From the IMG/VR virus record IMGVR_UViG_2671180699_000002: 12,529 nt of DNA, one strand, 5' to 3'. The DNA comes from a virus (Duplodnaviria; Heunggongvirae; Uroviricota; Caudoviricetes). Made by a program: the position numbers and the translations under genes. Every line of letters starts with the position of its first letter. Within the stretch, counting starts at the first letter, position 1. Below the pieces are notes generated by a model that was given only the letters and a program-made list of their open reading frames with translations, searched no databases and was not told where the DNA came from. Shown here in pieces: positions 4,032-10,890 of this stretch.

Positions 4032-5102
4032 TTACCCCCTGAAGCCCGGTGGAATTTCGGTATCCGGTTCAGAAATATGATTCACACAACGCTGGTTGTT
4101 CGTGCCGCTTACCGGGAGCAACCAGGGGTTCTCAAAATTCCGGTCCGGTCCAAAAAACGTCGTCGCTCGCTGAACAAATTCCGTTCCCGTTTTCCCGGTA
4201 GCCGCCAAGTATCTTGCGTAACGCCTCACGCCATCCAGCATGGCCTCTGGTGGCACCCCCTCGCGTAATCTGGCCTTCCAGGCACTGAAAGCGGATTTCT
4301 TCGGGTTTGCTCCGGCACGCAACGGGTACTCCCGCCAGACCTGTTCGAACACATCCGGATAATCCACTCGTCCCACAGACAGCCCGGTGTTTTCCGGGAC
4401 TACCCGATCGGCTTCCCGCTGAATGGCGGAATCGGCTTCAGGCTGCTGCAGTTGGTGTGATTGCTCCGGCCTTGGGGTCATCACCTGCTGCACAGCGCCC
4501 GAATCGGCTTTCAGCGCATACGCTGAATCGGCTTCCGGTGTCGTGCCTGCTGGCTGACCAGGATTGACGGTCTGAACATCCCCTGCCTGGTTCGTGGCGT
4601 TTTTTACGCCATGGACCATAGTGTTTTGATCTTCTTGATCTGTATCTTTATCTGTATCTTTATCTGTCGTGACTCGTCGTGACATGTGCGTGACATTTCG
4701 TGACGCGCCGTGACAATCGCCATTTTGTTCCCGCTTTCTTTCCCTCTCTCGCTGCGCCCTCTTGCGCTCTGCCGGAGATTTTGCGGTTTGCGAAATATTG
4801 CCGTTGTCCTCTTTCAGCACCTGGCGTTTTTCCCATCCAGTGATTAAATCACCATCAAGTACCCGCCCCTGCATCGTCTGCAAAATTGAATCAATTACCT
4901 CTTCTGTCACGTCGAGCGCACTTGCCAAATCTTCTGTCGTGACATCAATGTGACCTCGCGTGACATTTCGTGACGCGCTCACCAGGAGGTGGATATACAC
5001 TGCCATCACTGTTGCAATTGGCTGCCCTGACACCCTGGCAATTGTTCGCCACTTAGGGTCATTTGGCATGTCATGCCATAATCTGAGCCAGGCGTTAGCC
5101 AT
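4032..5102 (-). CDS. Phage replication initiation protein (lambda O-like replisome organiser) containing the probable origin
   Basis: ATG at 5102..5100 with GAGGTGAGT SD (the track ORF starts 2 codons earlier at a GTG). Position after cro/cII; iteron-like CGTGAC repeats and an AT-rich tandem repeat lie inside the coding sequence; acidic, repetitive mid-protein linker (DKDTDKDTD). Confidence 0.85.
   Translation of the reverse strand: MANAWLRLWHDMPNDPKWRTIARVSGQPIATVMAVYIHLLVSASRNVTRGHIDVTTEDLASALDVTEEVIDSILQTMQGRVLDGDLITGWEKRQVLKEDNGNISQTAKSPAERKRAQRERERKREQNGDCHGASRNVTHMSRRVTTDKDTDKDTDQEDQNTMVHGVKNATNQAGDVQTVNPGQPAGTTPEADSAYALKADSGAVQQVMTPRPEQSHQLQQPEADSAIQREADRVVPENTGLSVGRVDYPDVFEQVWREYPLRAGANPKKSAFSAWKARLREGVPPEAMLDGVRRYARYLAATGKTGTEFVQRATTFFGPDRNFENPWLLPVSGTNNQRCVNHISEPDTEIPPGFRG
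4637..4672. repeat. AT-rich tandem repeat, 12-bp unit ATCTGTATCTTT (2 full copies plus a partial third) inside the O-like gene
   Basis: Direct inspection of 4637-4672; encodes the DKDTDKDTD linker; immediately adjacent to iteron cluster A. Confidence 0.85.
4668..4714. repeat. Iteron cluster A: five direct CGTGAC repeats spaced 10-11 bp (candidate ori)
   Basis: CGTGAC begins at 4668, 4678, 4689, 4699 and 4709. One-helical-turn phasing inside the initiator gene, as in lambda ori. Confidence 0.75.
4938..4978. repeat. Iteron cluster B: four (C/T)GTGAC repeats spaced 10-11 bp, including a 21-bp exact copy of part of cluster A
   Basis: Repeats begin at 4938, 4949, 4959 and 4969. GCGTGACATTTCGTGACGCGC is identical at 4688-4708 and 4958-4978. 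Confidence 0.7.
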
Positions 5103-5173
5103 ACTCACCTCTTCTGATACCGAATCTTTTTACTCACGAGTTGCCGGAAGCGATTCGATATGGCTATTGTCAG

Positions 5174-5917: not shown

Positions 5918-6556
5918 ATGAGCAAGCAAACTATATCTGAACGCATAACCCAACGTATGCATGCGCTAAACCTGAAAGGCAAAGACCTTGTCAATGGCAC
6001 TGGCGCATCAAAAGGCTCCGTAAGTCAATGGATGAACGGTGGAGGAGCGCCGTCCTCGCGTTACATAAGTTCACTGGCAAAAATATTGAAAGTAAACGAA
6101 AATTGGCTTCTTAATGGAGGAGAGTTAAATACAGGTGATTCGCTTGATCTATCTTTACCGCCGATAAAAACGGTTCCGCTACTATCACTTCAGCAGGCAG
6201 CAAGCTGGAGTGATTATATGAAAAATTCCTCAATAACCTCTTGTGTGCAGCTTGTCGGAGAAATCCCGGTCAATACCTTTGCAGTTGTTCTAGAGAGTGA
6301 CAGTATGTCAACATCTGGTGGGGGAGTTTCCATCCCAAATGGTTCAACAGTTTTTGTTGATCCCGATCGAACCGTACAACCAGGAAATATTGTCCTTGCC
6401 TTACCCAAAGGGACCACAACACCTGTCATTCGTAAACTGGAGATAGAAGGGCCGGATATTCTTTTAGTCCCCACGAATCCTCGCTACCCTTCAATTATGC
6501 TGGATGATCTATCTTGCATATTGGGCGTATGCTTTAAAATTCAACAAGATATTTAA
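5918..6556 (+). CDS. CI-like prophage repressor: N-terminal HTH plus C-terminal S24 (LexA-like) autopeptidase domain, 212 aa
   Basis: N-terminal HTH region (KGKDLVNGTGASKGSVSQWMNG); C-terminal ESDSMS serine motif and downstream RKLE lysine, typical of LexA/CI/UmuD self-cleaving proteins. Divergent from the cro-like gene. Confidence 0.9.
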   Translation: MSKQTISERITQRMHALNLKGKDLVNGTGASKGSVSQWMNGGGAPSSRYISSLAKILKVNENWLLNGGELNTGDSLDLSLPPIKTVPLLSLQQAASWSDYMKNSSITSCVQLVGEIPVNTFAVVLESDSMSTSGGGVSIPNGSTVFVDPDRTVQPGNIVLALPKGTTTPVIRKLEIEGPDILLVPTNPRYPSIMLDDLSCILGVCFKIQQDI

Positions 6557-7722: not shown

Positions 7723-7775
7723 TTTCTGGTGACGTTTGGCGGTATCAGTTTTACTCCGTGACTGCTCTGCCGCCC
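7723..7775 (+). ncRNA. dicF: DicF small regulatory RNA (cell-division inhibitor; base-pairs with ftsZ mRNA)
   Basis: The sequence TTTCTGGTGACGTTTGGCGGTATCAGTTTTACTCCGTGACTGCTCTGCCGCCC matches my recollection of the 53-nt DicF RNA. It ends in a GGCGG...CCGCC hairpin followed by TTTTT, and sits between ydfC and dicB as in Qin. Confidence 0.88.
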
Positions 7776-8326: not shown

Positions 8327-8418
8327 AACAGTTCCGTAATAAATATCCGGTTTCATTCTTATATGCCAGCAATGGCAGGGATTTGTTCATCCTTAAATCT
8401 GTCATGAGGTTAAAACAA

Positions 8419-10890
8419 ATGAGTAAAGTCTTTATTTGCGCCGCTATTCCTGACGAACTGGCAACAAGGGAAGAAGGCGCTGTGGCTGTAGCCACAGCCA
8501 TTGAAGCTGGCGACGAACGCCGTGCTCGAGCAAAATTTCACTGGCAATTCCTGGAACATTATCCGGCTGCTCAGGACTGCGCTTATAAATTTATTGTCTG
8601 CGAGGATAAACCTGGCATACCCCGCCCTGCCCTCGATTCATGGGATGCTGAATATATGCAGGAAAACCGCTGGGATGAGGAGTCTGCTTCTTTTGTCCCG
8701 GTTGAGACTGAATCCGATCCGATGAACGTCACTTTTGACAAGCTGGCCCCTGAAGTACAGAACGCTGTCATGGTTAAGTTCGACACATGTGAAAACATCA
8801 CCGTTGATATGGTTATTAGCGCACAGGAATTGTTGCAGGAAGACATGGCAACATTCGACGGACATATCGTTGAAGCGTTGATGAAAATGCCAGAAGTTAA
8901 CGCCATGTATCCGGAGCTTAAGTTGCACGCCATTGGGTGGGTTAAGCATAAATGTATTCCTGGTGCTAAATGGCCCGAAATTCAGGCAGAGATGCGCATC
9001 TGGAAAAAACGTCGCGAAGGTGAACGCAAGGAAACCGGAAAATACACGTCTGTTGTTGATCTCGCCCGCGCCAGAGCCAATCAACAGTACACTGAAAATT
9101 CAACAGGAAAAATCAGCCCGGTCATTGCTGCCATTCATCGCGAATACAAGCAGACATGGAAAACACTGGATGACGAACTGGCCTACGCTCTCTGGCCTGG
9201 TGATGTGGATGCCGGAAACATTGACGGCAGCATCCATCGCTGGGCAAAAAATGAAGTTATCGACAACGACCGCGAAGACTGGAAGCGTATCTCGGCATCA
9301 ATGCGCAAACAGCCTGATGCCCTTCGCTACGACCGCCAAACTATTTTTGGCCTTGTCCGTGAGCGTCCGATCGACATTCACAAAGATCCCGTAGCACTGA
9401 ACAAATATATCTGCGAATACCTGACGACAAAGGGCGTGTTTGAGAATGAAGAAACAGACCTGGGCACTGTTGATGTTCTCCAGTCATCAGAAACACAAAC
9501 TGATGCAGTGGAAACTGAGGTATCTGATATCCCAAAAAATGAAACCGCGCCGGAAGCTGAACCATCTGTAGAGCGTGAGGGGCCGTTCTATTTCCTCTTC
9601 GCAGATAAGGACGGAGAAAAATACGGTCGCGCAAACAAACTTTCTGGTCTGGATAAGGCACTGGCTGCTGGCGCCACTGAAATCACAAAAGAAGAATATT
9701 TTGCCCGAAAAAATGGCACATACACGGGCTTACCGCAAAATGTAGATACCGCTGAAGATTCAGAACAACCAGAGCCGATAAAAGTTACCGCTGACGAAGT
9801 AAACAAAATTATGCAGGCAGCCAATATCATCCAGCCTGACGCCGATAAGTTGCTTGCTGCATCACGTGGTGAATTTGTTGAAGGGATTAGTGACCCGAAT
9901 GATCCGAAATGGGTTAAGGGGATCCAGACCCGCGATTCTGTGAACCAGAACCAGCATGAATCGGAACGGAACTACCAAAAAGCGGAACAAAACAGCCCAA
10001 ATGCGTTACAAAACGAGCCAGAAACGAAACAGCCTGAATCAGTGGCGCAACAGGAAGTGGAAAAAGTCTGCACCGCCTGCGGTCAGACCGGCGGCGGCAA
10101 CTGCCCTGATTGTGGCGCGGTAATGGGCGACGCAACATACCAGGAAACATTCGATGAAGAGTATCAGATTGAAGTTCAGGAAGATGATCCGGAGGAAATG
10201 GAAGGCGCTGAACATCCACACAAGGAGAACACTGGCGGCAATCAGCATCACGATAGCGATAATGAAACTGGCGAGACGGCAGATCACTCAATTAAGGTGA
10301 ACGGTCATCAAGAAATCACATCCACCAGCAGGACGTGTGACCATCTAATGATCGACCTTGAAACCATGGGAAAAAATCCTGATGCCCCGATCATCTCAAT
10401 AGGTGCAATATTTTTCGATCCGCAAACCGGAGATATGGGACCGGAATTTAGTAAGACTATCGATCTGGAAACTGCTGGCGGAGTCATTGATCGGGACACC
10501 ATTAAATGGTGGCTTAAGCAATCACGCGAAGCGCAATCTGCCATTATGACCGATGAAATCCCGTTAGATGATGCACTGTTACAATTGTGGGAATTTATCG
10601 ACGAAAACTCCGGTGAATTTTTTGTTCAGGTCTGGGGAAATGGAGCCAACTTCGACAACACGATTTTGCGCCGTTCATACGAACGGCAGGGGATCCCCTG
10701 CCCGTGGCGTTACTACAACGATCGCGATGTACGCACAATCGTTGAGCTGGGGAAAGCCATAGACTTCGATGCCAGAACGGCTATTCCATTCGAAGGTGAG
10801 CGCCATAATGCACTTGATGACGCCCGTTACCAGGCAAAATACGTTTCAGTTATCTGGCAAAAACTGATCCCGAGTCAGGCTGATTCTTAA
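8419..10890 (+). CDS. Large multi-domain protein, 823 aa: uncharacterised N-terminal region, acidic linker, CxxC...CxxC zinc-ribbon-like motif, C-terminal DEDDh (DnaQ-like) 3'-5' exonuclease domain
   Basis: ATG at 8419 with GAGG 9 nt upstream (the track ORF begins at an upstream TTG, 8383). C-terminal motifs: Exo I IDLETMG, Exo II GNGANFDNT, Exo III ERHNALDDARYQ. Zinc-ribbon-like CTACGQTGGGNCPDCG. Occupies the exo/recE position next to xis-int. Confidence 0.88.
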   Translation: MSKVFICAAIPDELATREEGAVAVATAIEAGDERRARAKFHWQFLEHYPAAQDCAYKFIVCEDKPGIPRPALDSWDAEYMQENRWDEESASFVPVETESDPMNVTFDKLAPEVQNAVMVKFDTCENITVDMVISAQELLQEDMATFDGHIVEALMKMPEVNAMYPELKLHAIGWVKHKCIPGAKWPEIQAEMRIWKKRREGERKETGKYTSVVDLARARANQQYTENSTGKISPVIAAIHREYKQTWKTLDDELAYALWPGDVDAGNIDGSIHRWAKNEVIDNDREDWKRISASMRKQPDALRYDRQTIFGLVRERPIDIHKDPVALNKYICEYLTTKGVFENEETDLGTVDVLQSSETQTDAVETEVSDIPKNETAPEAEPSVEREGPFYFLFADKDGEKYGRANKLSGLDKALAAGATEITKEEYFARKNGTYTGLPQNVDTAEDSEQPEPIKVTADEVNKIMQAANIIQPDADKLLAASRGEFVEGISDPNDPKWVKGIQTRDSVNQNQHESERNYQKAEQNSPNALQNEPETKQPESVAQQEVEKVCTACGQTGGGNCPDCGAVMGDATYQETFDEEYQIEVQEDDPEEMEGAEHPHKENTGGNQHHDSDNETGETADHSIKVNGHQEITSTSRTCDHLMIDLETMGKNPDAPIISIGAIFFDPQTGDMGPEFSKTIDLETAGGVIDRDTIKWWLKQSREAQSAIMTDEIPLDDALLQLWEFIDENSGEFFVQVWGNGANFDNTILRRSYERQGIPCPWRYYNDRDVRTIVELGKAIDFDARTAIPFEGERHNALDDARYQAKYVSVIWQKLIPSQADS

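Follow-up and report, generated by a model that had tools for sequence, protein, structure and literature searches.

What function is served by two clusters of short, helically phased repeats that lie inside a single gene of a tailed-phage genome? The question is raised by IMG/VR virus record IMGVR_UViG_2671180699_000002 (Duplodnaviria; Heunggongvirae; Uroviricota; Caudoviricetes), from which a stretch of DNA of 12,529 nucleotides, referred to here as the window, was analyzed over its full length. The clusters, A and B, fall within one minus-strand open reading frame that encodes a candidate replication initiator. A preliminary description of the locus, made from the letters alone, had proposed that the phased repeats and an adjoining AT-rich element form a replication origin inside the initiator gene. 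We consider it quite probable that the region is the replication origin of a prophage module, composed of iterons, an A-rich putative unwinding element and a second iteron array. This proposal draws support from selection at the level of DNA, from the identity of the gene and from the layout of the elements within it.

On the plus strand of the window, the pentamer GTGAC of cluster A occurs at 4669, 4679, 4690, 4700 and 4710 (spacings of 10, 11, 10 and 10 bp), and each copy is part of a complete CGTGAC, bearing out the five CGTGAC repeats at 10-11 bp that had been reported there. Cluster B has GTGAC at 4939, 4950, 4960 and 4970 (spacings of 11, 10 and 10 bp). It had been described as four CGTGAC repeats, and the four sites and their phasing stand, but the copy at 4949-4954 reads TGTGAC, so that, of its four GTGAC copies, three are exact CGTGAC. 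The window has 13 copies of CGTGAC versus 5.06 +/- 2.29 expected; none of 200 shuffles attained 13, and Tandem Repeats Finder called a 10-bp array at 4666-4715. The exact 21-bp duplication that had been noted between the clusters was recovered as well: the 21-mer GCGTGACATTTCGTGACGCGC is present at 4688-4708 and 4958-4978, against an expectation of no copies, and no further copy was found in the window, even when three mismatches were allowed.

Read on the coding strand, the repeats become GTCACG iterons, located at gene nt 389, 399, 409, 420 and 430 (codons 130-145) in cluster A and at nt 129, 139, 149 and 160 (codons 43-55) in cluster B. The order along the coding strand is cluster B, an inverted site in codons 64-66, cluster A, an A-rich repeat in codons 146-157 and a hairpin; the inverted site and the hairpin are additions to the preliminary description. 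The second array, consisting of cluster B and the inverted site, is located ~230 bp from cluster A. The translation contains ASRNVTRGHIDVTT, ASRNVTHMSRRVTT and DKDTDKDTD, and ASRNVT is present twice; the imprint of the repeats on the peptide, which had been remarked upon earlier as DKDTDKDTD and repeated VT segments, is thus plain to see.

Codon choice in cluster B was compared among 22 gammaproteobacterial and betaproteobacterial homologues that can be aligned gap-free over their first 100 codons. Third positions within the cores were 0.98 fixed, versus 0.54 at 38 other conserved degenerate codons, and the difference between core and other synonymous sites was significant (Mann-Whitney p = 5.4e-6) with a comparison set that takes in Val, Thr, Gly, His, Ser and Ala codons outside the cores. 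At codons 43, 44, 47, 48, 50, 51, 54 and 55, synonymous positions were 91-100% fixed; the fixed core codons were GTC (22/22), ACG (22/22), GGT (22/22), CAC (21/21) and TCA (21/22). The spacer codon Arg49 was free, with four codons used and 0.41 fixed. Moreover, the 207 cores counted in 26 loci fall in all three reading frames (52/29/27 in cluster B and 35/28/36 in cluster A), and the flanks of GTCAC(G) are nearly information-free.

The same pattern is found at close range. Three E. coli alleles, 84-88% identical in their N-terminal halves, have invariant GTCACG cores and differ in the 4-5 bp spacers. In one E. coli allele, a +1/-1 indel pair shifts the frame between two cores and leaves the cores unmoved. 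Among the E. coli alleles, a 21-bp insertion of exactly two iterons accounts for six copies versus four in cluster B. The inverted site is present as GTGAC at nt 193/194 in most GTCACG-type loci and survives a change of the peptide from DVTE to DCDE (GAC TGT GAC), with V65 always encoded by GTG; in a GTAACG-type locus of Enterobacter (L029), the site that corresponds to the inverted copy reads CGTTAC. Judged from these comparisons of sequence, selection acts on the iterons as DNA and maintains them.

A scan of one genome per species yielded 39 loci, which together with phage and E. coli loci gave a set of 47 homologous genes. In 38 of the 47 related loci, one 6-mer is present at least twice in each of two segments, gene nt 100-260 and nt 330-560, and has few copies outside them. 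The separation into two clusters, which had been flagged as unusual, is therefore present as described and is no oddity of the window, being a layout kept among relatives. Within arrays, spacings across loci are 10 bp (136 cases), 11 bp (35) or 21 bp (8). A comparison of repeat copy number across relatives, which had been suggested at the outset, gave three to six copies of cluster A at the equivalent place, in addition to the four or six of cluster B in the E. coli alleles. Insertions of 7, 14 or 22 residues between the helix at residues 29-45 and the helix-turn-helix consist of extra iterons, and the distance between the arrays varies from ~190 to 320 bp, mostly in 10-bp steps that stem from the gain or loss of iterons (helical-phasing check). 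Units of 17-21 bp are exactly common to both arrays in several lineages, which makes the 21-mer of the window one instance of a recurring two-iteron unit.

The core sequence differs by lineage and changes in both arrays together. GTCACG is used by 29 loci; GTAACG by four, in Enterobacter, Pantoea, Marinobacter and Sphingomonas; CGAACG(C) by four genome loci and one uncultured phage; and GCAACG by the Ralstonia phage Firinga, which has 38% protein identity and five sites plus four. Between an Erwinia locus (L028, GTCACG) and its close relative, the Enterobacter locus L029 (GTAACG), C is replaced by A at the equivalent sites 160, 181, 224, 412, 422 and 451. In slots where GTAACG would read as a TAA stop, GTCACG is retained (nt 438) or an inverted copy is used. 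Both arrays share one specificity that switches in concert.

Directly beside cluster A, Tandem Repeats Finder placed 2.9 copies of the 12-bp unit TCTTTATCTGTA at 4633-4667 (95% matches), in agreement with the AT-rich 12-bp tandem repeat previously described as adjoining the cluster, and GC content falls to 0.30-0.35 across 4600-4660, the lowest in the initiator gene. The last iteron of cluster A is directly followed by (GATAAA/GATACA)n-like sequence in all core classes. In 38 loci, the 45 nt past cluster A average 66% A+T and 72% purine, compared with 45% A+T loci-wide. In hosts with 55-69% GC, Asp is encoded in the tract by GAT in 47 of 53 cases versus 139 of 350 elsewhere in the same genes (Fisher 6e-12), and Lys by AAA in 45 of 57 cases versus 75 of 231 (Fisher 2e-10). 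The choice of AT-rich Asp and Lys codons in GC-rich hosts indicates that the AT-richness of the tract is selected as DNA, as would be expected of an unwinding element. The CFT073 allele has a 6-bp deletion (AGATAA) within the AT-rich repeat, which fits a tolerant linker as in lambda, where O still complements after in-frame deletions of the AT-rich region (PMC6022878).

An inverted repeat lies ~15 nt beyond the AT-rich repeat and, folded as DNA, has a dG of -10.9 kcal/mol (z = -5.3). Short GC-rich palindromes, such as CCCCCC..GGGGGG coding for PP.G, are found 40-60 nt past the last cluster A iteron in many lineages, and palindromes with a stem of at least 6 occur past cluster A in 46% of cases versus 22% of control windows (p = 0.005). 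The hairpin is possibly a third origin element or else a chance feature, and we treat it as a lead only. On the plus strand, which is antisense to the initiator gene, the scan also reads it as terminator-like. Counts from the promoter and terminator scan were no higher than in shuffles, and a promoter-like match at 4690-4717 is composed of iterons and was not counted as evidence. DnaA boxes showed no enrichment, with none located within the origin region, and a DnaA-dependent model was dropped for these reasons.

The gene that contains these elements is, as read from its matches and neighbors, the replication initiator of a lambdoid/Rac-like prophage module. The phrog_3729 family, ‘replication initiation protein’, matches residues 1-356 of 356 (E = 1.7e-256), and the E. 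coli protein is annotated by NCBI as ‘phage replisome organizer’. Pfam and NCBIfam scans gave no significant family (Pfam E <= 0.01), leaving a weak match to the DnaT tail and a sub-threshold match to PF09681, the N-terminal phage replisome organiser (E = 0.13; 12.7 bits, below the cut-off of 23.3), in which residues 5-122 are aligned with profile positions 1-118 of 121. The lambda O family (Pfam Phage_rep_O) was absent among the matches of the initiator up to E = 1. The earlier term ‘O-like’ holds as analogy and not as homology; phrog_3729 marks the gene as the initiator of a replication module, and lambda O is not among its Pfam matches.

An AlphaFold2 model of residues 1-160, built on an alignment of 43 sequences (mean predicted local distance difference test score, pLDDT, of 69), has helices at 29-45, 56-63 and 67-77, a loop at 46-55, a hairpin at 78-87 and a basic helix at 110-130. 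In the model, the N-terminal domain is winged-helix-like, and cluster B codes for the loop NVTRGHIDVT ahead of the helix-turn-helix and for the last part of helix 29-45. Residues 129-160, encoded by cluster A and the repeat, have pLDDT < 50 and are predicted to be disordered, between the folded N-terminal domain and the C-terminal module. From its N terminus, the protein would thus have a winged-helix-like domain and a basic helix, then a disordered linker and the C-terminal module. A Foldseek search of the N-terminal domain model against PDB gave nothing significant (E > 0.6), with a list of mostly winged-helix regulators, and sequence and profile searches of PDB with the initiator found the DnaT tail alone. 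The last 20 codons (4035-4094, minus strand), QRCVNHISEPDTEIPPGFRG, are closely similar to the C terminus of E. coli DnaT, RDINSVSEPDNHIPPGFRG, with E = 0.02-0.07 to the DnaT entries 6aep, 2ru8 and 9zbt. An ending of the form ...PD..IP.GFRG is common to family members that have otherwise different C-terminal domains. This DnaT-like tail may be a mimic motif that engages host restart, primosome or helicase-loading proteins in a module that has no loader.

The two halves of the gene are exchanged independently. The N-terminal module alone (84-88% identity) was found fused to a C-terminal half with a DnaT DNA-binding domain, followed by a lambda-P-like gene, and the C-terminal module alone (92-97% identity) was found with an apparently unrelated N-terminal half before it and a gene for a DnaC-like ATPase after it. 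The exchange point is located just beyond the A-rich tract, so that the DNA-binding domain and its putative sites travel together, as in lambda-type origin-specificity modules. The alleles compared thus indicate that the N-terminal domain, both arrays and the A-rich tract move as one module. The unrelated N-terminal half (locus L052; E. coli 2015C-4944, NZ_CP027390.1 1966375-1967490) has no Pfam family and carries a two-cluster repeat of its own, AAGGGGCTT, at nt 185 and 196 in the N-domain part and at nt 441, 452 and 463 (11-bp spacing), with a (GAACAG)n tract, rich in purines, after the second cluster. A layout of two arrays may therefore extend beyond the initiator family of the window.

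Three features of lambda-type origins were checked. At least three helically phased direct repeats of one core are present (five plus four sites), as is an AT-rich element directly adjoining the array, its unwinding being predicted. Cluster A and the AT-rich tract lie in the linker-coding part of the gene, as in lambda, whereas cluster B lies inside the N-terminal domain. In the mechanism that we propose, the winged-helix-like domain would bind the 6-bp GTCACG once per helical turn on one face of the DNA, and the complex on the five sites of cluster A would strain and open the A-rich tract, by analogy with the lambda O-some. The C-terminal module, which has a DnaT-like tail and no loader gene of its own, would bring in the host helicase. 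Cluster B, with four direct sites and one inverted site, would bind the same protein, either looping into the origin complex or limiting initiation or transcription.

Several points weigh against this proposal. Binding of GTCACG by the initiator and origin activity of the fragment are predictions, and the protein that binds the iterons is assigned by analogy with lambda O and SPP1 gp38. The N-terminal domain has no significant match to a characterised origin-binding domain, either in PF09681 or by Foldseek, and a 6-bp asymmetric core at each turn differs from the iterons of lambda, which are 18 bp long and symmetric. Co-inheritance of cluster B and the N-terminal domain is trivial, as one lies inside the other, and alone does not identify the binding protein. 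One of the two search patterns was the peptide encoded by cluster B, which inflates the count of GTCACG-type loci; this pattern leaves codon choice unconstrained, and the other core classes were found via an unrelated pattern, WHDMPND. Finally, the arrays are not universal, as three loci (L032, L034 and L039) have an A-rich tract and no obvious arrays.

Among other explanations, the one that survives best is that the arrays mainly exert control, by autoregulation or a roadblock, by pairing of arrays like that of P1 incA, or as a centromere-like site, with the true origin elsewhere. Plasmid control loci and parC-type centromeres typically have phased repeats in two arrays, no AT-rich stretch adjoins cluster B, and gene order places both arrays in the path of early transcription. 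However, an A-rich tract selected for AT-richness comes immediately after cluster A in every case, which is the signature of an origin and not of an operator. No partition genes were found nearby in family and phrog scans of the window, the elements integrate by means of an integrase, and the N-terminal domain, arrays and tract are exchanged as a unit, like lambdoid origin-specificity modules. We consider this explanation unlikely, while noting that our main proposal leaves room for cluster B alone to act in control.

A further reading, in which the repeats have no binding function and either signal recombination or a module junction or arose through slippage and gene conversion, is very improbable. 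The junction between the N- and C-terminal modules does fall at the AT-rich repeat, copy number varies (four versus six iterons, and the deletion in CFT073), and 17-21 bp units are shared exactly between clusters in several lineages. Slippage does not explain a fixed 6-bp core with free spacers across bacterial classes, nor 10-11 bp phasing, nor the concerted change of the core in both clusters, and a junction beside the origin is what lambda-type initiators show (PMC6022878). The least credible alternative, to which we give next to no weight, is a protein-level low-complexity or repeat expansion of VT/SR motifs and a DK linker that is functionless as DNA: the peptide is shaped by the repeats, and S44, N46-H51 and V54-T55 are invariant in protein alignments, but a purely protein-level reading is excluded by the roughly equal use of three frames, by core synonymous sites that are fixed when the same amino acids elsewhere use all codons, and by an indel pair that alters the peptide and keeps the cores, and it is further contradicted by a GTGAC that outlasts the change from DVTE to DCDE and by AT-rich codons for D and K in GC-rich hosts. 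The preliminary description had named just such an expansion as the outcome that would overturn an origin; instead, the cores are read in three frames and fixed at synonymous sites, and the spacers vary. Readings of the repeats as a packaging site or as methylation sites were dropped, given that the element lies in an early replication gene and that the core is asymmetric.

If the region is an origin, the position of cluster B raises a further possibility. Iteron 3 of this cluster always overlaps codon 51 (4950-4952 in the window), right after the universally conserved Arg49-Gly50. Residue 51 is His with GTCACG, Asn with GTAACG or GCAACG, Arg with CGAACG, and Glu or Thr in iteron-less relatives (equivalent codon 51 compared in L033, L035-L037, L041, L047 and L049). 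One subgroup has, in addition, an iteron over the first turn of the putative recognition helix, where C versus A in the core gives His versus Asn. Because iteron 3 overlaps codon 51, the variable bases of the core dictate residue 51, and the tie between them may reflect a coupling of site and reader or may merely be a consequence of the overlap. A more ambitious hypothesis is that the second array is written in the codons of a DNA-contacting loop, such that one mutation shifts both site and reader, and that the two arrays form one looped origin complex; we regard this as doubtful. If it were true, with residue 51 contacting the variable base, it would constitute a built-in shift of origin specificity, by which co-resident prophages could escape competition or incompatibility. 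As a separate observation, two homologues of the N-terminal domain that have no iterons, from a Serratia metagenome-assembled genome (L040) and Pantoea sp. (L042), carry at ~residues 105-190, in place of the linker and cluster A, an insert (…YVYYVATTDGDVVRVGISRNPWARCKDLK…) that resembles a GIY-YIG-type nuclease motif.

The positions of the origin elements, the two modules and the neighboring genes are collected in Table 1. Family and phrog scans identified no helicase loader or replicative helicase among the genes next to the initiator in the window. In relatives, the next gene encodes a DnaC-like loader (Aeromonas pAEv1818), a primase/helicase (Pseudomonas P7869) or a DnaB-like helicase (Ralstonia Firinga and cyanophage Cy-LDV1), and elsewhere it is lambda-P-like; the homologous gene thus stands where phage replication modules have their initiator. 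At 98-99% identity, the gene is carried by seven isolated Escherichia phages, from which we conclude that the replication module is in use. The gene is present at >=80% coverage in 1647 of 5426 complete E. coli genomes (~30%), and the module is also found in prophages and phages of Pseudomonas, Aeromonas, Bordetella, Ralstonia and other bacteria.

Table 1. Positions in the window of the proposed origin elements, the exchangeable modules of the initiator gene and neighboring genes
Feature	Position	Strand	Remarks
Candidate initiator gene, open reading frame	4032-5102	minus	356 aa counted from ATG at 5102
Cluster A, proposed initiator-binding core of origin	4668-4714	minus	5 direct GTCACG iterons, coding strand
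Cluster B	4938-4974	minus	4 direct iterons, coding-strand core GTCAC[G]
Fifth cluster B site, inverted	4906-4911	plus	GTGAC on coding strand, gene nt 193, codons D64-V65-T66
AT-rich tract, proposed DNA-unwinding element	4600-4667	not assigned	A-rich on coding strand; encodes DKDTDKDTDQEDQ
Inverted repeat/hairpin	4588-4618	not assigned	13-bp stem, 5-nt loop
Exchangeable N-terminal module	4645-5108	minus	DNA-binding domain, both clusters, A-rich tract
Exchangeable C-terminal module	4032-4627	minus	
YdaT/CII-like gene	5599-5174		
Cro	5874-5596		
CI-like repressor	5918-6556		
RecE-like exonuclease	8383-10890		
Integrase	11234-12529		
Genes next after initiator			DUF977, zinc-ribbon protein

Two RNA genes were matched by Rfam elsewhere in the window. 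The antisense small RNA DicF was matched at 7724-7775 on the plus strand (76.7 bits, E = 7e-16), in the interval that separates the repressor from the RecE-like exonuclease, the same placement as in phage Tritos and in Qin/Rac-type prophages. On the minus strand, 1786-1957 matched sok, the antitoxin RNA of a hok/sok-type toxin-antitoxin locus (106.7 bits, E = 6e-24), and in the related phage Tritos a HokD toxin is annotated at the corresponding place.

With the origin and its core known, the replication specificity of these modules and the cross-talk between co-resident prophages would become predictable, and phage-derived replicons would gain a handle. The proposed origin would also account for the single fixed point at which these initiator genes are mosaic. 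Four specificity classes occur in nature, in which sites and proteins are matched, and coding constraints such as TAA avoidance can be seen in the sites, which makes the family a compact system for the study of initiator and origin co-evolution when the origin overlaps the coding sequence of the initiator. The conserved second array poses a concrete question of looping versus control.

No description of this origin was found in the literature searched, many older papers being outside the reach of the search; papers on oriJ mention Rac merely in passing, and the K-12 Rac module is of a different type. Two separated arrays, of which one is not beside the unwinding element, are known from the iteron plasmids with P1 incC/incA and from phage P4 ori/crr. 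The locus is like these systems in having two separated arrays of the same predicted initiator-binding repeat, and unlike them in the fold and family of its initiator and in the location of both arrays within coding sequence.

The closest parallel is with the origins of lambda and Stx phages, in which iterons and an AT-rich tract are located in the middle of O (PMC7466680), and the array and tract of lambda code for a disordered linker (PMC6022878). Similarly, the proposed origin is internal to the initiator gene and occupies its linker-coding part, between N-terminal DNA-binding and C-terminal recruitment domains, with four to six putative initiator sites directly followed by an AT-rich tract of ~40 bp and an iteron number that varies among relatives (four versus six). 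The N-terminal domain and origin again appear to make up one specificity module, and the gene again follows cro and a cII-like gene. Unlike lambda, the protein has no detectable homology to O, and the module of the window has no P-like gene. The iterons of lambda are each bound by a dimer, whereas the window has short asymmetric cores at each helical turn, and it has a second conserved array in the part of the gene that codes for the DNA-binding domain.

In SPP1, oriL consists of direct repeats together with an AT-rich unwinding element within gene 38, and a second region bound by gp38 is located at oriR (PMC6316719). The locus shares with gp38 and oriL the direct repeats and AT-rich element in the organizer’s own gene and the presence of two separate regions, for which binding is here predicted, and it shares with the SPP1 family the ‘phage replisome organizer’ label and an end-to-end alignment to PF09681, though one below the cut-off. 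Its second region, however, is ~230 bp away in the same gene and not ~13 kb away, and its initiator is not accompanied by adjacent loader and helicase genes. By analogy, then, the proposed origin would work like lambda ori and SPP1 oriL, through a protein with no detectable membership in the lambda O family and with borderline relatedness to PF09681. What sets it apart from both is that it has no phage loader gene here, a 6-bp asymmetric core and a conserved second array inside the sequence that encodes the DNA-binding domain.

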